Shown: positions 4,404 to 41,569, numbered from the stretch's first letter. The stretch is 42,493 nucleotides of DNA from a virus (IMGVR_UViG_3300017747_000960:1-42493), one strand, 5' to 3'. Translations and numbers: made by a program. Notes: generated by a model from the sequence alone, not told the origin.

Positions 4404-4865
4404 TTAGACGTAGGCTTTAAAAGAAAGTGGGTTGCTTGTGACGGTGGCGATCAACTCGTGGTCGTTCAACGTCATAAACAGCACCGGGTCTTCGTCTTGG
4501 TCACCTTCAGGGTTTTTTATTTCCCAACGATCACCGCCCCATTTGGGGACTCGGACGAAATCGCCTACCTGTGCCCACGCGCCCTCAGGCCATGCGGTCA
4601 TGGTGTCACGATTTTTGTACGCCAATGGCCCCAACGCGATGACTTTGCCAATCATGTTGTTCCATTTTTCGTTCTCTTTGGTCTCTTCGACCAGAACGAT
4701 GCGTCCTGTTTTCTTTTTAATGCGCCGCAGTTGAACGATTACTCGTCCTCCAAGCGGTGCCATTCCCGGATTCACATCTGGAAATGCCCACGCCAACTCT
4801 TGCGGGTCAGGCGTGTCGTGCGTGGCCTCGAAGGCCATGATTTTCTCTTTCTCACTCATCATCAA
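4404..4865 (-). CDS. groES: Phage co-chaperonin GroES (Cpn10)
   Basis: PLGGRVIV, KTGRIVLVEETKE mobile-loop region, GKVIALGP, VGDFV, LNDHELIA match the Cpn10 pattern. Confidence 0.85.
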   Translation of the reverse strand: MMMSEKEKIMAFEATHDTPDPQELAWAFPDVNPGMAPLGGRVIVQLRRIKKKTGRIVLVEETKENEKWNNMIGKVIALGPLAYKNRDTMTAWPEGAWAQVGDFVRVPKWGGDRWEIKNPEGDQDEDPVLFMTLNDHELIATVTSNPLSFKAYV

Positions 4866-10334: not shown

Positions 10335-11882
10335 CTAGGCGCGGGGCAGGTCTGACGTGCCGGCGGCTTTGTTGATGCGGGACACCTCAGCGTCTGACAG
10401 CACCTTGTTGACCTTCATCGATCCACCGATCAACCAACTGCCGGTCATGTTGGGATTGGTCTTGTATCGGTAATGGCCGCCCTTGGGTATCTGGTCGGTG
10501 ATGTGTGCCTTGACGGGCACCACCTTGCCTTGTGCATTGGTGCCGCGCTTGGTGGCCTCAGCTTGCCAGTCCACGTCATCAGGCATCTCCACCTCAGCCC
10601 ATGCATGGTTGGCAGGACGGCGGTCGGGCGCGGTCAGTTTGGGGTCAGACTTCTCACCGATGTGGGTGGCGATGGGCAGGTCACCAGCGTGCCAGCCGGG
10701 ACGGTAGGCAAGGTCGCCGATCTTGGACTTGACCTTGTTGCCACGCATTTCGCCCTCTTTGGCGTCCACCCACTTGTTCATCTCCACCGGTGTGTTGGCG
10801 TCCACAAACAATGGGAACAGCTTGCCGGGATGATCTGGGTGGACACGGAATAGTTTGTAAGCCTTGACGGTGCTCTTTGGTTCTTTCACTGTGCCCCCCT
10901 TGGCCTTGGTAATGTCGTTCTCATTGGTGTCGTATGTGCCACGGTTGCCAGTAGCCGACTTGATCTTGTTCTGGTGAAAGGGCCTGAATGCGTCAATCGT
11001 ATGCTCGGCGTCGTATCCCTCGCCAATTTTGCTTGGGTCGCCTTTGTAGTACGGCATGCCAGCATCAAACACGTCTTTGTGAATCATGCCGTCATAGCCT
11101 TGCTTTTTGAGTTGCTTGACGACCTCATGCGAGTCTGCCAATGCATATGCATCCACTGATGCCTCTGGCAATAACTCGTCCAGAATTCGACTGACATCTT
11201 TTTTGCCGCCTGCTTCACTTACTTCGTCTGCAAGTTGCGCAAAACTTCTGACTCTGAAGTGGCCGCGCTTGTCGGTAGCATCGATGCTGTGCTTGGCACC
11301 GCCCTTCATGACGTGGTGATCAAGCGTGCTTAAAACGTCTGACAGGTCTTCATATCCAAGTTTGCTTTTGTGACGTGGGACAGTCAAATCATGATCCATC
11401 TGGTTGATAAATTCTTCCAGCGTTACATGCTCACCCAGCTTCCTGACATCGAACGGCTTCTTCATTTGCACATGCACTGGCACGCTGGTCGATCCGGGCC
11501 CGTGCTTGATGTCCCATCCAAGTTGCTGGGAGTACACGTTGGCGACTTCAGGATCGTCCGTGAACGATGGCGTTGACCGGTCTTGCGTGGTGACAAACTT
11601 GTCTACTTTGGGCACCTTGCGCTGGCCCCTGTACAGCCTTTGCTTGATCTCGCTGTCTTGCAGGAACTTAGCCAAGTTGGCGTCGCGTTGTTCACGGGGT
11701 AATACGTCACCACCCTCAGCCTTGCCTTGCTGGCGCTGGGTCAGCCATTCACTGAATGACGGCATGTCACGGGTGTACTTGCTGGCCATCTCTTTGTCGT
11801 ACTGCTTGCTCAACTGCGAACGCATCTCAGCCAACTGCCGTTGCTGTTCAAGTTGCTTGCGGTATTGCTCAGGAATGGGCAT
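10335..11882 (-). CDS. Polyvalent protein, N-terminal part (ART-PolyVal-like ADP-ribosyltransferase domain plus a second domain)
   Basis: LYRG...SFTDDPEVANVY...PVHVQMKKPF...QGYDGMI...IKSATGNRGTYD resembles the ADP-ribosyltransferase domains of phage polyvalent proteins; GAGG RBS. Confidence 0.7.
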   Translation of the reverse strand: MPIPEQYRKQLEQQRQLAEMRSQLSKQYDKEMASKYTRDMPSFSEWLTQRQQGKAEGGDVLPREQRDANLAKFLQDSEIKQRLYRGQRKVPKVDKFVTTQDRSTPSFTDDPEVANVYSQQLGWDIKHGPGSTSVPVHVQMKKPFDVRKLGEHVTLEEFINQMDHDLTVPRHKSKLGYEDLSDVLSTLDHHVMKGGAKHSIDATDKRGHFRVRSFAQLADEVSEAGGKKDVSRILDELLPEASVDAYALADSHEVVKQLKKQGYDGMIHKDVFDAGMPYYKGDPSKIGEGYDAEHTIDAFRPFHQNKIKSATGNRGTYDTNENDITKAKGGTVKEPKSTVKAYKLFRVHPDHPGKLFPLFVDANTPVEMNKWVDAKEGEMRGNKVKSKIGDLAYRPGWHAGDLPIATHIGEKSDPKLTAPDRRPANHAWAEVEMPDDVDWQAEATKRGTNAQGKVVPVKAHITDQIPKGGHYRYKTNPNMTGSWLIGGSMKVNKVLSDAEVSRINKAAGTSDLPRA

Positions 11883-21456: not shown

Positions 21457-21687
21457 TTACTCTGCAACAATAATTACTGTTGCTGTCTCTCGGTCAATTT
21501 GTATTTGGCCATCGGCCACCATGTTCCAATCGTCCGAGCAACACTCTTTGTCACTGCGGCATGGAATGGTGAACACAACGTGCTTTGCAAGGTACTCTTT
21601 CTTGCCCACAAACACACGCCATGCATGATCGACTGTGCCCCTTCCTTCTTGGCCACGGGACTTGTTAAAACGCACACGGATTTTCAT
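21457..21687 (-). CDS. Hypothetical protein
   Basis: 76 aa; ATGA overlap with the oxygenase gene. Confidence 0.7.
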   Translation of the reverse strand: MKIRVRFNKSRGQEGRGTVDHAWRVFVGKKEYLAKHVVFTIPCRSDKECCSDDWNMVADGQIQIDRETATVIIVAE

Positions 21688-22319
21688 AAAATCTCCACAG
21701 ACTTTTCTTCTTTGGCCTCTTCGTTGACGGCCACGCTCAGGTTCATGTGAACGAATCTCATCGACTCATTGCCCATGTTTTTGGTGAACGAGTGTGGCAC
21801 CCATGCGTTAATCAAAATCAATGCGCCGGGCTGGGGTGTGAACACGATCTGGTGTGAACCCAGAGTGATGTTGCTTGCGTCCTTTTCAGGCAGGTTGATG
21901 ATCACTTTGCCGGGCCTTGGATCATGCACAACCAGCTTGCAGGCCTTGTCGGGTACATCAATAAAAAAGAACGCGCTGATCTGGCATCCAGCCCCGTGAA
22001 CATGGGTCTCCATGGATGACAAGTGGTTGTGCTCTTGCGTCCACATCTCGGTGAAGTACGTCACCAACTGATCCATGTTGTAGCCCTGCGATGCAAGGAT
22101 GTTCCATGCGGTCTGCGAAACGTACTGCGAGAAGTCTTGCAACTCTGGCTCATGCGAATAACTGCCGGTCATGAGGTTCACGTAGTCAGGATTCTTTTTG
22201 CGCTCACGCGACTTTTCTTCGTAGCGCATAGACACTGTGCGAACCATGTCAATAAATTCAGGCTTATGCACCACATACACGGGCGTGGCAAAGTAGTGCA
22301 TCTCTTCAAGTTGATCCAT
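21684..22319 (-). CDS. 2OG-Fe(II) oxygenase (TIGR02466-like)
   Basis: HVH...ISAFFFI...HDPRP...PQPG.LIL...W.PH...R...N double-stranded beta-helix pattern. Confidence 0.85.
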   Translation of the reverse strand: MDQLEEMHYFATPVYVVHKPEFIDMVRTVSMRYEEKSRERKKNPDYVNLMTGSYSHEPELQDFSQYVSQTAWNILASQGYNMDQLVTYFTEMWTQEHNHLSSMETHVHGAGCQISAFFFIDVPDKACKLVVHDPRPGKVIINLPEKDASNITLGSHQIVFTPQPGALILINAWVPHSFTKNMGNESMRFVHMNLSVAVNEEAKEEKSVEIL

Positions 22320-28620: not shown

Positions 28621-29967
28621 CTATGGCATCGGATTGCCCATGGGGTCTACATTTATGAGCATCCGATCCGTGTCCTCTCTCGTCGCGTTCTTGCGACGTT
28701 CATTTAATGCCTTCAAGCCCTCATAGGCTTGGTATCCCAACTCAGGTGCCTGCAATACAAGGCCAGCGCCTTGCGTCACGCCAAACGGCAACATGCTTAG
28801 GGCACCACCAACACCACTTGCAAACTGCGCCGCATTACGTGCGGTCGGTACGCGCAAGCCTTTGTTGGGGTAGTCGTACTCTTTGAAAGCATCGTACAAC
28901 TGTGATCCAGCCAGAGCACCACCAAAGGCACCCACACCTACACGGGCAACTGAAGGTAAAGCACCTTTGACAATATCTGCACCATGCGCGGCTTGATCTG
29001 CCGCACGTGTCATGATGGTTGGTGTGTGTTTGTACGCAGACAAATCAACTGGCGCTCTGCCGGGTGTGGTTGTAAAAATTTGTTTTGGCAAACCAGTCTT
29101 TGGATCAATTGATGTTGTCTTGGCAACTCGTTCACTTGGTGTGCCTTTGATGTATGCCAACGCATCTTGCACTTCAGACATGGTGCGAACGGGCTTGCCG
29201 TTGCCAGCAACTTTTTCTAATTCTTTGAGCGGAATGCGCAGGTCTTCTGCAATTTGGCTGTTAAGGTACCTTTGAAGGCTTGCACGGCTCTGTGGGCGGT
29301 GCATGTAAGCAGTACTGCCAGTTTGCTTCTCGTAAAGCGATTGAATGATTGGAAGCACCCTTTTACCGCCTTCAATGCTTCCTGCCAGCTTGGCCCCAGT
29401 CGCACCTCCAACAACGCCCATGATGGTGTTGTCCTCGGCTCCTGCGGCCGATGATGCAGGCACGGTCTCGCCAGCGCCTTCAACGGCCTCAGGAGTTTCT
29501 GCTTTGGCTGGTTCTTCGGTGGCTTCACCAATCTGAACTTTAGGCAATGCGCCACCGTAATAGGTGGACACTTTGTCCATGTGGTTAATGGTCTCGTCTG
29601 GAAGTACTGCTAGATCACCAGTTTCATAAAACTTGTTGCGAGTCTCAGTACTGGCGTTGTAGCCAGCCAAAACTCTGTATGGATCGTTGCCAATTTTTTT
29701 ATTTGAAATCAATTCTTTTAAAAGATTCAAACCACCCTCAATGTTTTCATCCATGTCATGAGGATTGACACGCAAACCTTTGGCTGTGTCGGGCATAAGT
29801 TGCATCACACCAATTGCGCCTTTTTTTGACTCAGCTTTTGGATTGAATCCACTTTCGGCCATGACCATGGGAAGCACAAAGTCAGGATTCAAACCCTTGG
29901 CTTTTGCTTTCTTCGCAATTTTGTCTGCGATCTCAAGTTGCTCGTCAGTTAGTTTGGATAAATCCAT
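28621..29967 (-). CDS. Virion-associated lytic transglycosylase (ejection protein)
   Basis: SLT motifs AESGFNPKAES, GAIGVMQLMPDTA, LAGYNA; Gly/Ala hydrophobic helices in the C-terminal half. Confidence 0.88.
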   Translation of the reverse strand: MDLSKLTDEQLEIADKIAKKAKAKGLNPDFVLPMVMAESGFNPKAESKKGAIGVMQLMPDTAKGLRVNPHDMDENIEGGLNLLKELISNKKIGNDPYRVLAGYNASTETRNKFYETGDLAVLPDETINHMDKVSTYYGGALPKVQIGEATEEPAKAETPEAVEGAGETVPASSAAGAEDNTIMGVVGGATGAKLAGSIEGGKRVLPIIQSLYEKQTGSTAYMHRPQSRASLQRYLNSQIAEDLRIPLKELEKVAGNGKPVRTMSEVQDALAYIKGTPSERVAKTTSIDPKTGLPKQIFTTTPGRAPVDLSAYKHTPTIMTRAADQAAHGADIVKGALPSVARVGVGAFGGALAGSQLYDAFKEYDYPNKGLRVPTARNAAQFASGVGGALSMLPFGVTQGAGLVLQAPELGYQAYEGLKALNERRKNATREDTDRMLINVDPMGNPMP

Positions 29968-29975
29968 GCTTCACC

Positions 29976-31469
29976 TCAAGGGTTCTGTTTTTTTGCGGCA
30001 TCACGTTTTGCTTTTTCTGCCTTAACAGCGTCATAGGTCACACCAGAAGTGCTTTGTGCTGGTGCTGTGGCAGGCTTGTTAGACACATTGCCACCCGCAG
30101 GGTTGTAAGTAGTCTCAGACGGCTTCACCAGTGGGTTTGCTGTGGCAATCTCGCGGTACTTCTTTGCCTGCTCTTGACGCATCTGAAGGTACTCTTCGTT
30201 GTCTTCCAAACGGCCGTAGGGAATCTTTTTCTCTTTGGCAAATTTGTAGCGTTCTTGAGTAGCCTTCTCGGTGTGTGCCATCAAGTCCATCAATGTCACC
30301 AACGCAGACTGGCTGTTGCCAATGTTGCCTGTTGATGTCTGTTGCAACTGCATGTATGCATCTGTTGGATTGAGTGCCGCGCCCCGCAAGGCGACTTGGT
30401 TTTCAGCCAACAACTTGACCAACACTTGGAACTTGTTTTTGGCCTCTTCGGACATACCGATCTGGCGTGCATACACGTCAATGTCTCTGAGCGTATCGCC
30501 CAATTTTCCGTCGGCCGCCGCACGAGCAAATACTTCCATTGGGTTGTTGCCACCGAACTTGTTGAGCAAAGCACCAATCTGTTCTTGGCCGCTGATCTTC
30601 TTGCCATCTGGTGTTGTGGAATCTGCAAGACCCACACCCAAAGACAAGTCTCGGATTGAGCCCAACAACTTCAAACGATCTGGTGCGCTGTCTGCGCGTT
30701 GACGCATGACTTCCTCTACGCTCATGCCCTTCTCGCGCTGTTCACGTGCATAAATGGCCGCCTGCTCCATCTTCTCGTAACGACCCATGGTTGCCCACTG
30801 TGCTGGATCGATTTGTGGAGGACGGCCTGCTTCAAGTGCTTTCTCAAATTGAACTTTTTTGGCTTCAGCAGTCTTAGGGTCTGCGTTTGGATTCAATTGA
30901 AACTTGGTGTAGTCCTCCAAAGGCATCAATGGGTCTTTGCCCATTGCAGAAGTTGCCGCAGTAGTGATCTCCAAACCAGCCTTCGCACCTGTGTAGTACT
31001 CAGCGGCCGCCTTAGCCACGGGAGTGCTGTCACCCAGTGATGTGATGCGGCTGTAAGTTGTCGCATCCATAGGCGTCACGGTGCCATCGGGGTTTTTGTT
31101 TTTGGCCAACCACTCTTGATAGATTTCGTTCTGCTTTTGTTTTTGGGACAACAACATGTTGGCCTGCTCCATCTGCACCTTCATTTGTGCAAGAGGAAGT
31201 TGCTGTTCACGTTGTCTTTCAACGTTCTCACCCATGGCTTCTGCCGCGCTACCAAGAGACGCAAGGAAACCACCGAGTTGCGGCTTCGCAAACCCAGCGG
31301 CCACCTTCCAATAGTTTGGCTCTTCGTAGCGTTTTTGCAGTGCTTGAATTTGCTCATCCAGAGTCGTTCTGTATTTCTCAATTGACTCTGGTGGCATCTC
31401 AGCAGGGTTGATGTTTCCAAGACCACCAGCAAAGCTGTAGTCTTGTGGTCTGCGTTCTGTAGTAGCCAT
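29976..31469 (-). CDS. Putative ejection (internal virion) protein
   Basis: 497 aa, helical, no Cys; between pilot-like proteins and the transglycosylase. Confidence 0.65.
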   Translation of the reverse strand: MATTERRPQDYSFAGGLGNINPAEMPPESIEKYRTTLDEQIQALQKRYEEPNYWKVAAGFAKPQLGGFLASLGSAAEAMGENVERQREQQLPLAQMKVQMEQANMLLSQKQKQNEIYQEWLAKNKNPDGTVTPMDATTYSRITSLGDSTPVAKAAAEYYTGAKAGLEITTAATSAMGKDPLMPLEDYTKFQLNPNADPKTAEAKKVQFEKALEAGRPPQIDPAQWATMGRYEKMEQAAIYAREQREKGMSVEEVMRQRADSAPDRLKLLGSIRDLSLGVGLADSTTPDGKKISGQEQIGALLNKFGGNNPMEVFARAAADGKLGDTLRDIDVYARQIGMSEEAKNKFQVLVKLLAENQVALRGAALNPTDAYMQLQQTSTGNIGNSQSALVTLMDLMAHTEKATQERYKFAKEKKIPYGRLEDNEEYLQMRQEQAKKYREIATANPLVKPSETTYNPAGGNVSNKPATAPAQSTSGVTYDAVKAEKAKRDAAKKQNP

Positions 31470-31472
31470 GAA

Positions 31473-33224
31473 TTAACCTTTCTTGGATGGCATAGCGCCA
31501 CGTGAAGAAGTAGAGGCGCAACCTTTGAAGCCACGTGCTTTGGACTTGATGAGGCCGCCGTCAGCCGCGCACTCAAAGCAACAGCAACAGTAACATTCAC
31601 AGCAACAGCATTCACACGAGCAACAGTCACCGCAATCACCGCAATCACCGCAATCACCGCAATCACCGCAATCAGAACCGCCTCCACCACCAATACCTTT
31701 GAAGATGTCTCCGAGGCCTGATTTGATGCCGGGGAAACATTTGACAAGTGCTTTGCCTGCGGTGCCCAATGCGGCCGCGCCAGACAGCGGAGACATGCAC
31801 AAAGTAGTCTTCGTGCCAGTTGGGATGCTGTAGCCCTGAAGCAGGGTTCCAAGCGATTGCAACTTGGTGAGCGGATAGTTCTGCTCGTTCTGTGCAATGG
31901 TCTGTTGCTGGCCACCAAGGGTAGACAGCGCGTTGATACAGGCCAAGTTCATGTTGGCACCAGTCTGTGCCAAGTTTCCCATGTTGACGCCTGCTTGGTT
32001 CAACAAGTTGCCTTGGTTTGCCGCCGCCTGTGCGGCAGTTTGTGCCGCAGTGAGGTTGGCTTGATTCTGTGCAGTCTGGGCCTGCGATGCAGTTGAACCC
32101 AAGCCTGCCGCAATCTGGTTTGCGCCTTGTTGCAAATTGCCAAGGTTTGATCCTGCGTTGATCCTGTTTTGTGCTTCCTGATTTGTTAGTGAACCAGCAG
32201 TCGATCCCAACTGTGCAAGTGTGTTGGCCTTCTGCTGAGTCAACGTGCCTTGGATGTTGCCGGCATTGATCAGGTTCTGCATTTGCTGGCCAGTCAGTTG
32301 ACCAGATGTCTGACCTAATTGGCCAAGCAAAGAGGCCTGCTGTTGCGCCAATGTGCCTGCGGTGTTACCTGCATTGGCCACCAGTGCGTTTTGCTTGCCA
32401 GCGGCGCACAAAGCCTGTCCATAGCCCTGAGACATCATCTGGGCAATCTGGTTGTTTAGGTCTTGTTGTGCTTGGGCAGTAATCTGACCTTGAACCTGAG
32501 CACCACGCTGTGATCCAAACTGGCCAGAGCCCACTGCGGCGGCGGCGGCCATAGGTGACAAATTCTGACGGATGTTTCTCTGTGCAATGTCCGACATCGA
32601 CTGCACCGCAGTCTTGAGGTACGGGTTCATGTACGAAGCGGCCAAGTCAGCAGGGCTGGTGCCAGTGGCTTGTTGGAGGTAAGGCTGTGCCGCACTCAAT
32701 CCACCGCTTGTGGCGGCTTCCTGAAGATACGGTTGGGCCGCGCCAGTCATGTTCAGCTTGGTAGCTTGGTTGACGTACTGGCCAGACACGCATGCACCGC
32801 ATGTGCCTGCCGCACTTCCCAAGTATTGGTTGGCAGAAGCCAAACCAGACATGTTTGCACCCCTGCAAATCAAAGGCTGTCCAGCCTCGTAGCCAGTCGT
32901 ACACATGGCAGTCTTGGCGTAAGGCTCCATGGCGCTCAGAGGGCTAGAACCGGTGCCGGCTTTAAGGTAAGGAGATGCCGCGCCCGTAATGTCTTGCCCA
33001 GCCGCTTGGCCCACCAAATTCTTGCCGGCAGTGATGCCTGCTTGCTGGGCTCCAAAGTTTTGACAGGCCTGTGCAAATGCCTTCTCTTGCAAAGGCTGGG
33101 CTCCTGCAAATTGCGCCTGATCAGCGGCCGTTTGACCCTTGCTTGCAAGGTTACTCAGGTAGTCGGTGTAATAACCCGGCGCATTCGTTTGTTTATTTTG
33201 CGAGGATTGCAGTAAGTTTGCCAT
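31473..33224 (-). CDS. Putative ejection/DNA-pilot protein, Gln/Ala/Gly repeats, Cys-rich C-terminus
   Basis: 583 aa; GQFGSQRG pilot-like motif; 16- and 18-residue repeats; about 28 Cys. Confidence 0.7.
   Translation of the reverse strand: MANLLQSSQNKQTNAPGYYTDYLSNLASKGQTAADQAQFAGAQPLQEKAFAQACQNFGAQQAGITAGKNLVGQAAGQDITGAASPYLKAGTGSSPLSAMEPYAKTAMCTTGYEAGQPLICRGANMSGLASANQYLGSAAGTCGACVSGQYVNQATKLNMTGAAQPYLQEAATSGGLSAAQPYLQQATGTSPADLAASYMNPYLKTAVQSMSDIAQRNIRQNLSPMAAAAAVGSGQFGSQRGAQVQGQITAQAQQDLNNQIAQMMSQGYGQALCAAGKQNALVANAGNTAGTLAQQQASLLGQLGQTSGQLTGQQMQNLINAGNIQGTLTQQKANTLAQLGSTAGSLTNQEAQNRINAGSNLGNLQQGANQIAAGLGSTASQAQTAQNQANLTAAQTAAQAAANQGNLLNQAGVNMGNLAQTGANMNLACINALSTLGGQQQTIAQNEQNYPLTKLQSLGTLLQGYSIPTGTKTTLCMSPLSGAAALGTAGKALVKCFPGIKSGLGDIFKGIGGGGGSDCGDCGDCGDCGDCGDCCSCECCCCECYCCCCFECAADGGLIKSKARGFKGCASTSSRGAMPSKKG
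31627..31671. repeat. Coding tandem repeat, 5 x TCACCGCAA (Cys-Gly-Asp)
   Basis: Five perfect 9-bp units. Confidence 0.95.
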
Positions 33225-33226
33225 TT

Positions 33227-35377
33227 TTAACCTTTCGTCTGCTTGATGTAGTCAAGGGGAGACTTCGCCTTAGGTGGTATTTTACTTGTGGGTGCCGATC
33301 TTTTGTGTGCGCGCAACTTCTCACGCAGACCATCAAGAATCTTTGCACCCGCCTTGTTGTCGCCACCACCGAGGGCTGAAACAAAACCTGCTGGGAAAAC
33401 GTACTCGCCGTCTGCAATCTTGGCTGGTACGGGTTTGCCTTTTGCTTTTTCATCGTGACGAATCTGACTGCGGAAGCCTTCAAGGACTTCACGGCCAGCC
33501 TTGCTGGAGCCGTCACCCAAAGCCGCCACCACGTCAGCGTCCATCACGTAGTCGCCATCGTGAAGCATTGCTGGGATGTCGTCTGATTGACCTGTGCCAC
33601 CGCCGCAAGCGTAGTAGCCAGTCATGCCCGTCACAAACTCTGGGTTGTGGTTGTCAGGCATGGCGTCTTGATACTTCTTAGGCAGGCCACCAGCGGCCAA
33701 GCCACCCATATTGCCATGCTGGGAGATACGCTGTTGCAAGTGAGTCAACTGCTTGAGAGTCAAAGGCTGGCGTTTGCTTGATGCGGAGTTGACCAACATG
33801 TCCGAGCCGCAATTTACAAACTTGGGCATGTACTTGGCGTCTTGGTTGTAGCAATAGGTCATTGAGCCTTCAACGTTGCCGCCCTCCGCAAAACTGCCAC
33901 CGTGCGCAAGTCCACCCGTAGGTTCGCCAAACGGGTTGAGTTTGATCTGAGGCACACCTCCAAAACGGTCTTGCATTTCTTTAGCCAAGCAACCATCCAT
34001 GCGGCCATAAATGTCCTGCAACTTAGTTTGACTGGGCGTTTCAGGATTAGTTTTGTCAAAAACAATTTGATTGCGCAACAACGAGTCGCGTGTGTCAAGC
34101 CATGGGATAGCACCGCAACCAAGAGTACCAAGCGTTCCCACAGTTTGCACTGTTTTTGTTTTTGGAATCTTGATCTTTGGAATCTTGATTTTTGGCGGCT
34201 TGACTACGGGCGGTTTGACCACGGGTGGCTCATCTTCGCAATCACATACGCAAGTTACTTCACATGCATCTCTCTTAGCTGTAACCGTAACTGTCGGGAG
34301 GGAGGGAACTGATGGGACGTTGGTGCAACCAACTTCACACGCATCTTTTGTTCCAGTAACCGTAACTGTTGGAAGTGTTGGAGTAGTACATGTATCACGT
34401 GTGCCAGTCACATTGACTGTTGGCAAACAAGTTACTTCACAAGCATCCCTTTTTGCGGTCACTGTGACTGGTGGAAGTTCTGTAATAGGCGTGTTTACGG
34501 TATCTGTGGTTGTTGGCAAGCCACCAGTAACAGTTGTATTTGATGTGCAAGTCAAGTCAGTACAAGTTGGTCTTGTGCCAGTGACGGTGACGGTATCAAG
34601 AGCACCAGTGCCCGTTGTGGCTCCGGTGCCTGTTGTATCGGCCGATCCGATGGTACCAAGGCTACGGGTCAAACCAGTAGAAGTGCCAGAAACATCTGTG
34701 CAAAAGTCACGGTTACCAGTGACAGTGACCGTGTTGTCAGTGTTTTCGCCAATCTGAGTTGTGGCGCCGCCCGGCAATGCGCCAAGGTTTGTTGTCGATG
34801 CACAGCCTTGTGCGCAATCATCGCCTGCGGCAACAGCAGTAACTGGAAGGCCACCCGATGATGTACAAATATTACTGAGACTTCTGGTAAGGTCTTTAGT
34901 ACCAGTGTTGATCAAGTTGTTGGCCATGGCACCAACAGCACCACACACAATGTTCTGACCTTTAAGGCCAGATGCCACAGCACCCTTGGCACCTGCGGTC
35001 ACCACGTTACTGGCGGCGCAACTTAAATCAAATGCGCATGTAATTTGATTGCCAGCAAAAGTTCCAATCTCAGCACCAATCATGTTTAGACCAGTGTTGA
35101 GTAAAGCCTTCTCAAGTGGGACACCAGTAGCAACGCTGTAGCCAAAGTTGAACGCAGGCAGTAGGCTGGGCGCGTAGATGGCAACACCAATCTTGGCCAT
35201 CGTGCCAAGAGGGTCGTCCATGGCCGCTTGAATTGTGTTGCCTACTGCTTTAACGACAGGCTCAACAACCTCTTCAACTACGGTCTCAACGATGTCGCCA
35301 ATGCCCTCGACAACGGCACCAACGGCGTCGCCAACTGCTTCAAAAACGTCGCCAATTGCACTGACTACTGCTGACAT
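33227..35377 (-). CDS. Putative ejection protein with TonB-box-like repeats and duplicated tape-measure-like C-terminal domain
   Basis: 716 aa; amphipathic N-terminus, Thr/Cys-rich repeats, PPVVK/PKIKI segment, two (SDD)IPAxLxDG(D/E)YV domains; AGGAG RBS. Confidence 0.7.
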   Translation of the reverse strand: MSAVVSAIGDVFEAVGDAVGAVVEGIGDIVETVVEEVVEPVVKAVGNTIQAAMDDPLGTMAKIGVAIYAPSLLPAFNFGYSVATGVPLEKALLNTGLNMIGAEIGTFAGNQITCAFDLSCAASNVVTAGAKGAVASGLKGQNIVCGAVGAMANNLINTGTKDLTRSLSNICTSSGGLPVTAVAAGDDCAQGCASTTNLGALPGGATTQIGENTDNTVTVTGNRDFCTDVSGTSTGLTRSLGTIGSADTTGTGATTGTGALDTVTVTGTRPTCTDLTCTSNTTVTGGLPTTTDTVNTPITELPPVTVTAKRDACEVTCLPTVNVTGTRDTCTTPTLPTVTVTGTKDACEVGCTNVPSVPSLPTVTVTAKRDACEVTCVCDCEDEPPVVKPPVVKPPKIKIPKIKIPKTKTVQTVGTLGTLGCGAIPWLDTRDSLLRNQIVFDKTNPETPSQTKLQDIYGRMDGCLAKEMQDRFGGVPQIKLNPFGEPTGGLAHGGSFAEGGNVEGSMTYCYNQDAKYMPKFVNCGSDMLVNSASSKRQPLTLKQLTHLQQRISQHGNMGGLAAGGLPKKYQDAMPDNHNPEFVTGMTGYYACGGGTGQSDDIPAMLHDGDYVMDADVVAALGDGSSKAGREVLEGFRSQIRHDEKAKGKPVPAKIADGEYVFPAGFVSALGGGDNKAGAKILDGLREKLRAHKRSAPTSKIPPKAKSPLDYIKQTKG
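34271..34738 (-). repeat. Six TonB-box-like peptide repeats
   Basis: DNTVTVTGNR, LDTVTVTGTR, LPPVTVTAKR, LPTVNVTGTR, LPTVTVTGTK, LPTVTVTAKR. Confidence 0.8.
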
Positions 35378-35378
35378 A

Positions 35379-35810
35379 TTACTCTCCTAAATTCAAGCCA
35401 ATGCGAGTTTTCCCGTCTTTTGCTCGAAAGACTTGATAGCCCATTCCGGGCATCGGTGGGTTCATCGCAATAATTTTGAACAATCGCTCAAGAGAGGGAT
35501 CGGTAAATTCTGTGACCAATACTTTGATTCCAAAAACTTTTTTAGCCCACACGGTAAACAGTTTGCTGTTTTCCACAAAGTTGGGGCCTGTGTCTGCATT
35601 AAATGCTTTGAAAAAACCTTGGCCGTCTTTGCCTTTGTGAAGTTCAAACAAAGTGTTGCCAAATTGTTTGACTTCAGTATTGGGCTGACTTAGTTCGTCA
35701 AGGATGGCAGGCATCATCACCTGAGGTGAGTGAGGCTGTTTATTGTTCTCAAGAAAAATGCCGATGATCTGGCCTGTATCTAGTTTCTGCTTTTTTGAAT
35801 CTATTTGCAT
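35379..35810 (-). CDS. Hypothetical protein, possibly a degenerate GNAT fold
   Basis: 143 aa alpha/beta pattern at the position before the ejection genes where podophages often carry a GNAT-like gene; fold not confirmed. Confidence 0.5.
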   Translation of the reverse strand: MQIDSKKQKLDTGQIIGIFLENNKQPHSPQVMMPAILDELSQPNTEVKQFGNTLFELHKGKDGQGFFKAFNADTGPNFVENSKLFTVWAKKVFGIKVLVTEFTDPSLERLFKIIAMNPPMPGMGYQVFRAKDGKTRIGLNLGE

Positions 35811-35811
35811 T

Positions 35812-36927
35812 TCATAACTCCGTTGTCATTACTGCGGCTGAATAAACGTTACCCATACCAGCCGCTAATGACAAAATGGCCCCTTTCGGAGCCTCAATGT
35901 CGTGCGACAAGAATACGTCGTCTTCTTGCGTTCTGTTTGGAATGCTCGGCACAAACCCGTTGGTCATATTGTCGATCAACATGCATGTTTCAAGCAAGCC
36001 GCTTACGCCCATCGTGTGACCAATTACCTGCTTGTACGAGGTGGCCACAAAGTCCGTGAAGGTCGATTCAATGGCCGCTCTTTCAGCCCGGTTGTTGGAT
36101 TTGGTGCCCGTGCCATGGGTTTTGATTACCGAAATGCATGCCGGGGTCAATTCAGCCATCTTCAGCGCGCCCTTTGAGGCCTTCACAAAGCCTTCGCCGT
36201 CATCAGTCTGGCCGATGGCATTGGCGCAGTTCTCTGAGGCCGTATAGGCCCCTAAAAGACGGCCCTTGGGGGTGATTCCACGGCGCTTGACCGTGGCTTC
36301 GTCCTCAAACACCGCCAAACAGGCCCCCTGACCCACGTGGAAGCCGCCGTTTACGCTGTCGAAGGCCGAGGGTAGGACACCCTCTTTTTCGTCCTTCCAA
36401 GCCAGCGATGCCTGTGCTTCACCGAAAAAGTTCAAAGTCAGGTTGCTTACTTGATCTTCCACGGCCAACACAATCACCCGGTTGAAACCGTAGAAGCGCA
36501 TTAGGGTTTGTACGTCCATGAGCACTTTCATGCTGGAAGCGCAGGCGGTGGAGTCGGTCACTATGTGGTCTACCGCACCAAAAATCTGAGCGGTACGGCC
36601 AGCGTATACCTGAGTCAGCGTCAGCGGCAGGAACTTGTATTCGTAGGTCAGGCTGTTGGGCTCTTGTTTGACGGCGTTGATGCCAGCAAAGTGGCCGTTG
36701 CCACCAGCCAGAATGAATGCTGTCTTGGCCTCAGTGTCTTCACGCAAAGTCTTGGCCAACTTCTGATCAATTACCTTGTCGGCAACCCGGTGCGGAGGGT
36801 AGAACAAGCCAGTCTTGACCTTGTCGTAGGATTCTGGAAACCAGTTCACCACCTGAGGGAAGCGGATGTCTTCAAACAGTTTGGTCTGGGTGCATGACGC
36901 AAGTCGGTAGTCGCTGAGGTAAATCAT
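35812..36927 (-). CDS. Beta-ketoacyl-ACP synthase (FabB/FabF-like ketosynthase)
   Basis: STACASS (Cys129), PSAFD...GFHVGQGA, KTHGTGT (His271), SYKQVIGH (Lys299, His304). Confidence 0.92.
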   Translation of the reverse strand: MIYLSDYRLASCTQTKLFEDIRFPQVVNWFPESYDKVKTGLFYPPHRVADKVIDQKLAKTLREDTEAKTAFILAGGNGHFAGINAVKQEPNSLTYEYKFLPLTLTQVYAGRTAQIFGAVDHIVTDSTACASSMKVLMDVQTLMRFYGFNRVIVLAVEDQVSNLTLNFFGEAQASLAWKDEKEGVLPSAFDSVNGGFHVGQGACLAVFEDEATVKRRGITPKGRLLGAYTASENCANAIGQTDDGEGFVKASKGALKMAELTPACISVIKTHGTGTKSNNRAERAAIESTFTDFVATSYKQVIGHTMGVSGLLETCMLIDNMTNGFVPSIPNRTQEDDVFLSHDIEAPKGAILSLAAGMGNVYSAAVMTTEL

Positions 36928-37205
36928 TTGATCAACTCCTGCGCCTCTTCAACCGACGCAGGGTCTCGTTTTTTGTGCTCTTCTAAGAAGTCAAACAATT
37001 GCTGTGGAGTCTCAGGGTGAAACTCTTTCACCAAGTCGTCTTCAATGTCGTAAATGATGGCCATGTACATGACGATCATTAGGCCATCAAGAGAGTCAAG
37101 TTCAGTCTCTTTAAATGGCGTCTCCATGCTCTCAAGCGGAGCAAGGTCTCGAAACGAAGGGCGCGCCTCCCGCGCCACCATGTTCAGTAAATCTAAAAAG
37201 TTCAT
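36924..37205 (-). CDS. Acyl carrier protein-like
   Basis: 93 aa, acidic, helical; LDSLD phosphopantetheine motif (Ser38); ATGA overlaps with the KS gene and the upstream gene. Confidence 0.82.
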   Translation of the reverse strand: MNFLDLLNMVAREARPSFRDLAPLESMETPFKETELDSLDGLMIVMYMAIIYDIEDDLVKEFHPETPQQLFDFLEEHKKRDPASVEEAQELIK

Positions 37206-37438
37206 TGTGCCCCCACATTTAAAATGCCGACAGCTTGCTCGGCCCACTCTTCCCAGTTATGAAATGCCCTCGAATCTGGAAGCCCTGATTGCTCAAGACC
37301 ACCAAACGTCGAGAACCCATCAACCCATTCCCGCCAATGCTCTTGAGGTACAACAGCAAGTTGCCGGGAAGCGAATAACTCAACCATCAGTTTGCAGTAC
37401 TGATCCCAAGTCATTCCGCGAGGGTCATAGGCAGTCAT
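37202..37438 (-). CDS. Small Trp-rich tail-associated protein
   Basis: 78 aa; DPRGMTW...WREW...WEEWAE; coupled to the nozzle gene. Confidence 0.7.
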   Translation of the reverse strand: MTAYDPRGMTWDQYCKLMVELFASRQLAVVPQEHWREWVDGFSTFGGLEQSGLPDSRAFHNWEEWAEQAVGILNVGAQ

Positions 37439-39711
37439 TATGGATTACCTGTGCCACGTACATCGCCAGTGTCTATGCTCAAAAGCACCCGGCCCATGAA
37501 ATAGTCTCCGTTTTGTGTATTACTCCTAAAGCGCATGCGCATCTCACGATACTGCTCACGCATATCAACCTTCAGCGTGTCTGGGGCAAACGTATACGGT
37601 TCTGATTCTTGCGTGGTGTCTTCGGCGTAGCCTTTACCCAGCACAACAACTTCCATGTTGCCGTTCTGCACGAAGTCAGGTTCAATGCGCTCACAGCGAG
37701 TCCAGACGTTGTCGCCGGGCTGTTCTACGGTACCCACAAGGCCCATGCGTGTGCCAAGAATGTTGGTCTCAAAGAACGAGTCAATTGCGTTCACCTGATT
37801 GGTGTACACCTCATTCGTTCCGGTCTCGTGTTGCCACAGTGTGTACTTGCCGGCCGTGTTTTGAACGTTGCCTGCCCAGATAGGACGACGGAACACTTCG
37901 GTGAACACACCAGCAGAGCGGCGCGCACCCAAGGCTTGGCCAGCGTCGTACCACACCTTCTCACGCACGTTGTAGATGATGGCGTCGTTGCACTCTTCTG
38001 AATCACCAGAAGGAAAGAACCACCAGATTTCACCCCAACGAGGCACCTTGCTCACCCAGACCTTTTGGCGCTGGACGTAGTTCAGGTTGTCAAAAAAGTA
38101 GTTGTTGTTTTGCTTGTTCTCGACCTCTTGCACAACACCGTTGTACATGAGGAAACGATCAGAACCCACCCAGTAAAAGATGCCGTCGTACTCAATTACG
38201 CACTGGCTTGAAAGAATAGAAGACTGCTGTGTGATCAAGTCATAACGCCAATACAGCGTCTGGTTTCCTACGGTGGTGGGTGAATAGGTGACCCGCACTA
38301 CAGAATCCAACGTCCAGAACAGGCCGGCAGGTGATGTTGTACCGCCCCGAACTGGCAGGCCCTTCACCACTTTGGTGGAAGAGATGTTGTTGCGGTTCGA
38401 GTCGGCCGATGTCCAGTTGTTGAAGTCACCAGCCGCACAGTTTCCAATGAAACCGTTGTTGCCATAGGTAAAAAGGTAAGGGAACAACATGACGATGCCG
38501 CCAGACACAGAGATGTTGTTGTCAAAAGTCAGAGTCGAGTAAGCGCCAAACGTAAGCCCGGTTGTTGACCCTGCCGTGGTGGTGATTGCCGCACCGCCAG
38601 ATGTGGCAGACAAGGTAAATGTGCTTGTTGTGTTGGTGGCAATAACGTAATACGTTCCAGCGGCAATACCTGTGGCGGTTCCAGTCAATGTTCCTGTTAC
38701 GACAACTGCTTGGCCAACTGCAATGTTGGTTGTGGCCGTGCAAGAAAATTGTCCAGCAGTGCCAGTTACCGCAACGCCAGCCAGCAAAGCACTTGGTGTT
38801 GATGCTGATGCATTTGCGCTCAATATGGCAGTCCACACTCCAGAAACTTCTTGTGCGCTTACCACCGTGGTGCCTGAGGGGATGCCAGTGCCTGTTACGG
38901 ACACGCCAGCACCAATACCCACGTTGGTGTTTGGAAAGGTTATTGTGGAAGAACCTGTGGTCGTTGTTGCTGTGTCCGTGAACACACCGACGGGTTGCAA
39001 TGTAGTCCCAGTGAACGGGCCAAACATGGGGCGCGTGTTCACCGAAGATGAGATGTCGGCCAAGTTCTGGCCGGGGTGTGCAATCAGGTTGTTCTGACCG
39101 TTACCGTAAGCGTCGTAACCAATGTCAAATTGCCACAGCGTGTTTGCGCTTGGAGCATAGGTTGTGAGGGCATCAATGTACCCAGTAAAGCCTGATCCTG
39201 TGCCGCCAATGCTTGCCGCAGAGATTGTGACCGCCGCATTGTGAACATAATTCACACCGCCACTGGTGACGACCACGCTAAACACCAAGTTGCTGGATAC
39301 CGTCACAGTAACTGTGCATCCAGTTCCAGCGGCTGTGGTAATAGACACGCCAGTGTATGTGCCGTTGGTGTATGCCGAGCCTTGGGTGGTGATACCAATT
39401 GATGCTACGGAGCCAACTGGCTCCACAGGTGTTGGGCCAAAACCCACACCATTGTCGTTGTCAGTCGTCCATTGCTCGATGCCGTTGTTGTATCCAGAGA
39501 TCACGTAGTTGAGCCCATTCTCTGCGCTCATGATCATCCCGCGACTGATCCCTGTGGCGTTCAAAAACGCTCCGTTGTATCCAGCAATTTTCCGAGGGCG
39601 TCCGTATTGGAAGCGAACCCACTTCCCGTCCACATAACTCACCGACGAAAAGATTGTCCCGTCCCGCTGTATGCCGGGGCCTACTTGAAGCGTGACGACC
39701 TTTGCTGTCAT
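37438..39711 (-). CDS. Tail nozzle / stabilisation protein (P22 gp10 or T7 gp12-like) with inserted beta domains
   Basis: 757 aa; DGKWVRF, FYWVG..FLMYNG and EIWWFFPS beta-propeller pattern; Thr/Gly-rich inserts. Confidence 0.75.
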   Translation of the reverse strand: MTAKVVTLQVGPGIQRDGTIFSSVSYVDGKWVRFQYGRPRKIAGYNGAFLNATGISRGMIMSAENGLNYVISGYNNGIEQWTTDNDNGVGFGPTPVEPVGSVASIGITTQGSAYTNGTYTGVSITTAAGTGCTVTVTVSSNLVFSVVVTSGGVNYVHNAAVTISAASIGGTGSGFTGYIDALTTYAPSANTLWQFDIGYDAYGNGQNNLIAHPGQNLADISSSVNTRPMFGPFTGTTLQPVGVFTDTATTTTGSSTITFPNTNVGIGAGVSVTGTGIPSGTTVVSAQEVSGVWTAILSANASASTPSALLAGVAVTGTAGQFSCTATTNIAVGQAVVVTGTLTGTATGIAAGTYYVIATNTTSTFTLSATSGGAAITTTAGSTTGLTFGAYSTLTFDNNISVSGGIVMLFPYLFTYGNNGFIGNCAAGDFNNWTSADSNRNNISSTKVVKGLPVRGGTTSPAGLFWTLDSVVRVTYSPTTVGNQTLYWRYDLITQQSSILSSQCVIEYDGIFYWVGSDRFLMYNGVVQEVENKQNNNYFFDNLNYVQRQKVWVSKVPRWGEIWWFFPSGDSEECNDAIIYNVREKVWYDAGQALGARRSAGVFTEVFRRPIWAGNVQNTAGKYTLWQHETGTNEVYTNQVNAIDSFFETNILGTRMGLVGTVEQPGDNVWTRCERIEPDFVQNGNMEVVVLGKGYAEDTTQESEPYTFAPDTLKVDMREQYREMRMRFRSNTQNGDYFMGRVLLSIDTGDVRGTGNP

Positions 39712-40930: not shown

Positions 40931-41569
40931 TTAGGAATCCACGGCAACGGCTTGACGATCACCAACTCGCGCCACATCCTCAGACTTGAGTGATTGGAGT
41001 GATTCGGTGTACTTCTGTTGGAAGATCACACGCTGGTCGTTTTTCAAGAACTGCATGGCTTGCAACAGGGTTCCAAACAGCATAGCGTTCGGGGCGTTTT
41101 GAGTCAGCCAGTTTGTCTGGTTGGTAGAACTCAATGGTGCAATGCGCTCGTAGTAGAGAACCTCAAAGGCATAAGCCAAATCAGGTGTTGGGGCAATGTA
41201 CCAGTGCTCCCAATCGGTGTCGGCATAGTACAAGGGCACATTGGTCTCATCGGCATCTGGCCAATAGTTCTTCAAATACTCATACTTGCGCAGATAGACG
41301 GGTTGCTTTTTACCACCCACGGTCACGCTCATTGATACCGTCTTACGCCAGCGTGCTGGTTTTTGCAAAATGGCATTGCTTGCAGTCATGGTTGACTCAA
41401 CAATTTGCAATTGGCCAAGGGTTTTAATTGCTTGGGCAATCTCAAACTCGGCCAGCGAGATAAATGTGGGAATCGCATTGACAACAGCGGTGTCACTTCG
41501 CTCCAAATACTGAAGTACCGTGGAGGTCAAACTGTCATACGTCATCACCCATGATGGGATTGTTGTCAT
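40931..41569 (-). CDS. Tail adaptor / tubular protein A-like
   Basis: MTYDSL...YLER...FISLAE, IAPTPD, TNWL...PNAMLFGTL pattern. Confidence 0.7.
   Translation of the reverse strand: MTTIPSWVMTYDSLTSTVLQYLERSDTAVVNAIPTFISLAEFEIAQAIKTLGQLQIVESTMTASNAILQKPARWRKTVSMSVTVGGKKQPVYLRKYEYLKNYWPDADETNVPLYYADTDWEHWYIAPTPDLAYAFEVLYYERIAPLSSTNQTNWLTQNAPNAMLFGTLLQAMQFLKNDQRVIFQQKYTESLQSLKSEDVARVGDRQAVAVDS

Follow-up and report, generated by a model that had tools for sequence, protein, structure and literature searches.

TonB binds its boxes as a strand added to its own C-terminal sheet; colicin M and klebicin C carry such a box themselves and are pulled in by it, and klebicin C uses its own box to cross a channel that has none (PMC11658791, PMC12927319). 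Here we analyse a viral record of 42,493 nucleotides (IMGVR_UViG_3300017747_000960:1-42493; the whole stretch is called the window below), in which a protein of 716 residues, likely an ejection protein, has six TonB-box-like motifs in a long linker. Judged from sequence, a phage-borne box of this kind would extend the bacteriocin-style box to a virion protein, and would be new. Literature searches, with subscription journals mostly outside their scope, found no phage-encoded TonB box described, which agrees with an earlier reading made from the sequence alone (the sequence-only reading), and a review of ejection proteins mentions TonB zero times.

The likeness to the Ton-dependent bacteriocins (colicin M, colicins 5 and 10, klebicin C and pyocin S2) lies in a foreign protein having its own box within a region that in the bacteriocins is unstructured and here is probably so; the bacteriocins are drawn by TonB-ExbBD into the periplasm (PMC11658791, PMC12927319). 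Theirs is a single, near-N-terminal box on a toxin, proven by mutation, whereas the copies described here lie mid-chain in a virion protein and have a function that we infer; receptor-binding and cytotoxic domains and an immunity gene were all sought on the protein and its neighbours, and no such family was found. With transporters of the FhuA and BtuB type the phage motifs share the same ten-column profile, the same score range and a tolerance of Pro at columns 2-3 that does not extend inside the strand. Transporters have one box just before the plug, whereas the phage linker has six internal copies, and the plug and 22-strand barrel that follow a transporter's single N-terminal box are not found in the 716-residue protein. 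The need of phages T1 and phi80 for TonB presumably runs through the box of their receptor, FhuA. What likens them to the present case is an entry step linked to energy and to TonB (T1: PMC11658791). With T7 gp14, P22 gp7 and crAss001 cargo protein 1 the 716-residue protein shares its place as the first ejection-cluster gene after the nozzle and a gp14-like gene, without any match in sequence or structure, and it is three times the length of gp14 and gp7 (196-230 residues), with a long variable linker. Of the T7 proteins it is gp14 that leaves first, and it comes to span the outer membrane (PMC11784390, PMC8954989); podovirus ejection proteins are mosaically conserved (PMC8954989).

Six motifs that match the transporter box profile

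The protein, its regions and the six motifs, with scores on the profile described below, are as follows.

33227..35377, minus strand: putative first ejection protein, 716 residues (open reading frame (ORF) call; gene order; place of P22 gp7/T7 gp14)
34877..35377, minus strand: N-terminal helical Gly/Ala-rich region, residues 1-167 (low-confidence structure model; composition)
34118..34876, minus strand: low-complexity linker, residues 168-420 (Thr/Gly/Cys-rich, acidic, then a Pro/Lys-rich stretch)
33227..33700, minus strand: conserved C-terminal domain, fold without match, residues 560-716 (5438 representatives at E ≤ 0.001)
34709..34738, minus strand: motif 1, DNTVTVTGNR, residues 214-223, 14.3 bits
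34571..34600, minus strand: motif 2, LDTVTVTGTR, residues 260-269, 22.0 bits
34448..34477, minus strand: motif 3, LPPVTVTAKR, residues 301-310, 23.4 bits
34397..34426, minus strand: motif 4, LPTVNVTGTR, residues 318-327, 17.5 bits
34346..34375, minus strand: motif 5, LPTVTVTGTK, residues 335-344, 19.3 bits
34271..34300, minus strand: motif 6, LPTVTVTAKR, residues 360-369, 22.2 bits

The sequence-only reading had placed six motifs in a Thr-rich, low-complexity region, three of them 17 residues apart, and this description stands: their last codons end at 34709, 34571, 34448, 34397, 34346 and 34271, start-to-start spacings are 46, 41, 17, 17 and 25 residues, and Thr makes up as much as 42% of a 50-residue block in the region. 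Residues 168-385 have a net charge of -13 and one aromatic residue, and linker length differs among relatives. A full-length AlphaFold model, to which we give low weight, leaves residues 168-424 without structure (mean predicted local distance difference test score, pLDDT, 30).

Reference boxes came from 48 Plug-domain proteins of four Betaproteobacteria genome bins that hold relatives of the 716-residue protein and of genomes of the same order; three loci were excluded because of contig-end cuts or because they belonged to genome G031, on which no profile or alignment claim rests. Unsupervised Gibbs sampling over the 45 residues preceding the plug gave the profile L-[DPE]-[EPTD]-[VI]-x-V-T-[AG]-x-R, with most of its sites 13-17 residues ahead of the plug. 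Scored by leave-one-out, the genuine boxes have a median of 13.6 bits, with 29 of the 48 reaching 12 bits and 6 of the 48 reaching 22; the six phage motifs score 14.3-23.4 bits on this transporter profile. A six-frame scan of the window at 12 bits gave three further matches, all on the strand opposite the local genes. The PROSITE TonB-box signature, which we take to lie within about the first 115 residues and to start with D/E/N/F followed by S/T, is not matched, since all copies lie beyond residue 200 and, when inspected, no motifs but 1 and 2 agree with its core; genuine boxes of the 48-transporter set often have Pro at those positions (11/48 and 9/48). Pro is absent from columns 4-8 in all six copies, and Pro within the strand inactivates real boxes (PMC11658791).

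The pattern V-x-V-T-[AG], chosen after the motifs were known, occurs six times in residues 196-385; when this region was shuffled 20,000 times, it occurred 0.10 times on average and never more than 3 times. Where two copies have the same residue, the codons differ in 70 of 102 pairs, and unrelated codons would be expected to differ in 70.8; third codon positions vary between copies at the random level, and the similarity is therefore kept at the level of the protein. Tandem Repeats Finder detected no DNA array spanning the six motifs. Recent DNA slippage was rejected as an origin of the copies, there being no DNA tandem array and the synonymous sites being saturated.

Another element of the sequence-only reading, a Cys three residues after the closing Arg or Lys, holds for all six window copies and fails as a part of the motif in the family at large. 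A Cys at this position follows 6 of 12 matches in Cys-rich lineages (six of the 12 being the window's own) against 2 of 47 in Cys-poor lineages, and Cys was rejected as a motif component. The following Cys is, on this sequence comparison, a lineage overlay. Reassignment of the Cys codon was also rejected: what we take to be the catalytic Cys motif of the window's ketosynthase reads normally in translation table 11.

Conservation within the protein family

The family was gathered by its C-terminal domain only, independently of the motif, from the best 120 of 2513 homologs, the best 150 of 5438, 80 of 141 viral loci and 5 genome-bin loci. These 330 sequences gave 307 of at least 400 residues, which formed 122 clusters (lineages in what follows) whose representatives were scored. 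At 12 bits there are 59 matches in 30 of the 122 lineages, against a mean of 4.9 and a maximum of 10 in 30 rounds of local shuffling; at 15 bits, 38 matches in 22 lineages stand against a shuffled mean of 0.8 and maximum of 3. Homologs of the neighbouring proteins gave no match at 12 bits (76 of the 583-residue, 60 of the 497-residue and 24 of the 448-residue protein). On a FastTree phylogeny of 159 rows, for which branch support is local only, the motif is present in 23 of the 23 rows of the window's clade. Motif 6 is aligned in close relatives with LPEVVVTGKR or LGEIEIVGER (the latter in the Cys-poor close relative P0016, at aligned positions), and distant relatives have LEEVQVTAQK or IPEIVVTADR in Pro- or Asp-rich flanks. 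Because Cys-poor and Thr-poor relatives keep the pattern with other residues, neither Thr richness nor Cys is required for it, and it is not an artefact of Thr-rich sequence.

Circularity is lessened if sites are chosen on the core V/I-x-V/I-x-A/G alone, which is not itself enriched in the family (168 sites against 232 in shuffled sequence). Among these 168 sites, column 1 is L/M/I in 38% and column 10 is R/K in 29%; for strands of nozzles and fibres (n = 439) the values are 15% and 1%, and for genuine boxes 62% and 68%. Both flanks occur together in 29 family sites against 1.5 in shuffled sequence, with Pro at columns 5 or 7 in 0 of those 29.

These figures bear on the idea that the repeats have no host partner, and are a Thr/Val/Cys-rich spacer or a self-assembling beta structure (disulfide-stapled, for instance) that is box-like through composition. 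The Thr content of the region and the Cys after each window copy would suit such a structure, beta strands frequently show the V-x-V-T alternation (nozzles, too, have matches at 12 bits), and most family members do without the motif. However, composition-matched shuffles fail to yield it, relatives poor in Thr and Cys retain it, spacing and copy number vary freely while synonymous sites are saturated, and the model places no strands in the linker, though at a pLDDT of 30. We regard this explanation as improbable.

A cultured relative is gp066c of Caulobacter phage RW (L179:10531-12273), which has its C-terminal domain in common with the window protein and, in its linker, five V-x-x-[IV/L]-V-[VI/T]-x-P/A repeats such as VDEIVVTPSQ. 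Its best score is 11.6 bits, on a profile that represents Betaproteobacteria. The motif was not found in the cultured MinM2 homolog.

A second alternative is that the motif binds some other strand-accepting partner, either a periplasmic host protein (a TolA-type motor, a chaperone or a component of the beta-barrel assembly machinery) or a phage site in the nozzle, portal, packaging apparatus or protease. Selection on the motif is clear and yet names no partner; the activity of a box is set more by local structure than by side chains (PMC11658791), and the VDEIVVTPSQ-type repeats of phage RW stay below 12 bits. Yet agreement with the transporter boxes reaches the flanking columns 1-3 and 10, and the carriers of the motif (head-internal, tube, hub and spike proteins) have envelope crossing in common and no obvious phage partner. 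This alternative is unlikely in our view, though it deserves some weight. That the partner is TonB, taken across capture and pulling, a ratchet or a decoy, seems on the sequence comparison probable.

Recurrence in other phage proteins

Viral contigs were scanned by exact codons for L-P-E-V-[IMTVA]-V-T-A-x-R, with a first codon degenerate for Leu and Phe. The scan returned 53 loci, 52 of them with Leu and not Phe, in 25 protein clusters; two reordered control patterns of equal specificity returned 14 loci in 4 clusters and 10 loci in 3 clusters. Searches of PHROGs and Pfam placed none of the 31 scan representatives in a transporter family and named 16, most of which are entry proteins: three baseplate hubs, a spike N-terminal domain and virion structural proteins. 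The named carriers also include cell-wall hydrolase or peptidoglycan-binding proteins, a transglycosylase internal-virion protein, a tail lysozyme and a DNA transfer protein. One unnamed representative, which has three matches, is homologous to crAss001 cargo protein 1. The Thr form found in the window, LPTVxVTAxR, gave two convincing clusters, in which a tail tube or tail protein begins with the motif. The best cultured relatives of the hubs align from about residue 38 onward only. A second match occurs in 5 of 43 long scan proteins, within the shuffled range (mean 1.35, maximum 5), so arrays are exceptional outside the 716-residue family.

It is conceivable, with a likelihood that we place somewhat short of even, that many unrelated podoviruses (on ejection proteins) and contractile-tailed phages (on hub, spike and tube) have convergently gained TonB boxes of their own, and that TonB-ExbBD would pull their virion proteins directly and power the crossing of the envelope without need of a TonB-dependent receptor, in the manner of bacteriocins.

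The same distribution may be read in terms of a decoy, in which the boxes would titrate TonB against superinfecting phages or bacteriocins that depend on transporters, or alter nutrient uptake, without any pulling. Free box peptides lower colicin killing and phi80 infection, and delivered ones inhibit growth (PMC9841981); with more than one copy on each chain and more than one chain in each virion, sites would be numerous, some scan matches are small ORFs of 94-160 residues without structural annotation, and a patchy distribution suits an accessory conflict trait. But most of the carriers with a name are entry proteins, of which few copies are delivered, and the reported peptide effect required more than 100 µM (PMC9841981), which leaves a decoy quite improbable.

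Two further observations concern the placement of the motif. In contractile-tailed phages, baseplate hub, spike, tail tube and tail proteins each have one motif right at the N-terminus, a colicin-like placement (L192:3980-4951, L184, L232, L272:3989-4645 and L265). Crassvirales homologs of cargo protein 1 (L203:2659-6654, L210 and L212) have one to three strong motifs.

A possible role in entry

The sequence-only reading claimed a TonB-box likeness, and this is upheld by the column-by-column match to the profile, by the location in the variable linker of what is probably an ejection protein, and by the recurrence in unrelated entry proteins; its further claim, that the boxes serve as a stepwise ratchet through the envelope, finds no support in that form. 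We tentatively prefer, at a little less than an even chance, to see the six repeats as TonB-box mimics that would form an accessory handle, by which host TonB may grip the probably ejected protein in the periplasm and aid entry. The steps beyond the sequence match we infer by analogy. The 716-residue protein would be packed in the head and would leave first through the nozzle, like T7 gp14. Its N-terminal helices would then remain at the nozzle or the outer membrane, and the linker, probably unstructured, would reach the periplasm, where TonB's C-terminal domain could capture any exposed box by beta-strand addition. A pull driven by ExbBD would draw in the remaining chain and keep the injection site near the motor complex of the inner membrane. 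TonB-ExbBD works across the periplasm and is not known to carry cargo through the inner membrane. The main effect of having multiple copies would be a likelier and more avid capture, and they would not act as ordered ratchet teeth.

In the ratchet proposed by the sequence-only reading, TonB would grip successive boxes and haul the protein stepwise across the envelope. Several copies run in the same direction in a probably unstructured linker, three of them at 17-residue spacing; one relative (L011) has up to 10 copies, and the movement of long chains by TonB is stated to be unexplained (PMC12927319). Nevertheless, the array occupies only residues 214-369 of 716, or 22% of the chain; the spacing between copies varies from 11 to 162 residues across the family; 13 of the 30 positive lineages have a single copy; and second matches in the long scan proteins are no more frequent than in shuffled sequence. 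TonB displaces about 50-60 plug residues, and one N-terminal box suffices for bacteriocins more than 10 times longer (PMC12927319). A ratchet is weak on account of the partial coverage of the chain, the single-copy lineages and the sufficiency of one box for bacteriocins, and we consider it very unlikely.

The preferred reading, an accessory TonB handle, has a number of observations to contend with. No match at 12 bits is present in 92 of the 122 family lineages, so the motif cannot be the family's core entry mechanism; family members can do without the accessory TonB trait. The profile has few columns and is degenerate: the beta-rich nozzles give 0.37 matches per 1000 residues at 12 bits against 0.53 in the family, so single weak matches mean little, and the two separate only at 15 bits (0.04 against 0.34). 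On the 159-row tree the motif label changes 26 times, and sister rows often differ. L081, the closest relative binned with a Betaproteobacteria genome, is without the motif. On the side of the host, four of the five genome-bin relatives lie in Betaproteobacteria bins and five of the five bins encode TonB, though these may be co-binned phage contigs. In the scan, 15 of the 31 representatives have no PHROG or Pfam name, the motif was not found in the cargo protein 1 homologs crAss002 gp30 and prototype crAssphage gp47, and the Thr form is not clearly enriched (33 loci, 14 of them with Phe, most in short frames). Finally, the ejection role itself comes from gene order and one weak PHROG match of a neighbour, no solved relative having been found.

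An accessory TonB handle speaks to two open questions: by what force ejection proteins cross the periplasm, and in what way phage entry draws on the energy of the host membrane. If true, it would link phage entry mechanically and directly to host membrane energy and extend a bacteriocin strategy to viruses, and it would predict TonB dependence for phages whose receptor is no TonB-dependent transporter. The motif could also mark diderm, transporter-rich hosts of uncultured phages.

The putative ejection cluster and its neighbourhood

The window is a linear virus record with an estimated completeness of 76%, and no TonB gene is present among its own genes. The following features, with those listed above, define the locus.

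40931..41569, minus strand: podovirus adaptor (PF24175 SU10_adaptor, E 8e-24)
37438..39711, minus strand: podovirus nozzle protein (PDB 8zkk nozzle gp16, E 6e-8; phrog_3287)
35379..35810, minus strand: 143-residue protein directly upstream of the 716-residue gene (nearest named Atlas clusters DUF2824, score 0.93, and Acetyltransf_3, score 0.91)
31473..33224, minus strand: 583-residue second ejection-cluster protein (phrog_4287 DNA ejection protein, E 4.5e-5, weak)
29976..31469, minus strand: 497-residue third ejection-cluster protein, by position
28621..29967, minus strand: 448-residue protein with an N-terminal lytic transglycosylase domain, internal-virion-protein-like (PF01464, E 9e-18; phrog_342)

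A PHROG search identified portal, terminase and capsid genes, and because these occur with an SU10-type adaptor and a nozzle matching PDB 8zkk, the phage is a podovirus. After the nozzle come, in order, genes for a 93-residue protein, a ketosynthase, the 143-residue, 716-residue, 583-residue and 497-residue proteins and the transglycosylase-bearing protein. The cluster link of the 143-residue protein to DUF2824, which we take to be the family of P22 gp14, and to Acetyltransf_3 is a lead only. The order nozzle-716-583-497 is kept in most of the 85 related loci with a long enough contig. The 716-residue gene follows the nozzle and the gp14-like gene and precedes two further ejection-cluster genes and the transglycosylase, as in the gp14/gp7 class, and its product is, from these sequence relationships, likely an ejection protein in the place of T7 gp14 and P22 gp7.

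That role is read from position because neither sequence nor fold searches brought up a characterised relative. The 716-residue protein has no Pfam or NCBIfam family, and neither signal peptide, plug nor barrel family was seen; its PHROG matches all fall within the C-terminal part (phrog_6090, E 4e-6). Neither the family profile nor the 583-residue protein matched any PDB sequence, an Atlas search with the repeat region gave no usable match, and tblastn of the same region against annotated phages matched nothing. The model of the C-terminal domain (pLDDT 63) found no PDB fold at E ≤ 0.001 and, in a viral set, five matches at that threshold, all uncharacterised. Residues 1-167 contain no strong transmembrane segment (hydropathy maximum 1.43) and are a candidate membrane or nozzle-extension part. 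The C-terminal domain is internally duplicated (PAMLHDGDYV, PAKIADGEYV) and also occurs in proteins annotated as tape measures.

Further features of the locus

The first two ejection-cluster proteins (31473-35377) are very Cys-rich in some lineages, with Cys ranging from 0 to 22% in the 716-residue family, an observation that drew on the window and on L004, L048, L064, L066 and L072; Cys occurs in none of the homologs found of the third, 497-residue protein. Positions occupied by Cys face Asp in Cys-free relatives above expectation, 4.7-fold in the 583-residue family. Disulfide cross-linking, metal binding or modification of Cys are possible explanations, and a tie to the adjacent ketosynthase genes was rejected on comparison of related loci. 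DNA tandem repeats at 31577-31674 (9 base pairs x 5.3; 6 base pairs x 5.7) encode the Cys/Asp/Gly run that ends the 583-residue protein.

Between the nozzle and the 143-residue gp14-like gene (window 35379-37205) lie the 93-residue protein, which has a DSLD motif, and the FabF-like ketosynthase. The former is presumably carrier-protein-like, with no family match. Carrier-like gene and ketosynthase recur together in 11 of the 85 related loci and in GenBank MW202545, and with the possibly acyltransferase-related gp14-like gene they may act in acylation of virion proteins. Elsewhere, the terminase has beside it a weak match to an ART-PolyVal ADP-ribosyltransferase that falls slightly short of the cut-off (10335-11882), the head module holds a GroES-like gene (4404-4865), and a 2OG-Fe(II) oxygenase is also encoded (21684-22319).

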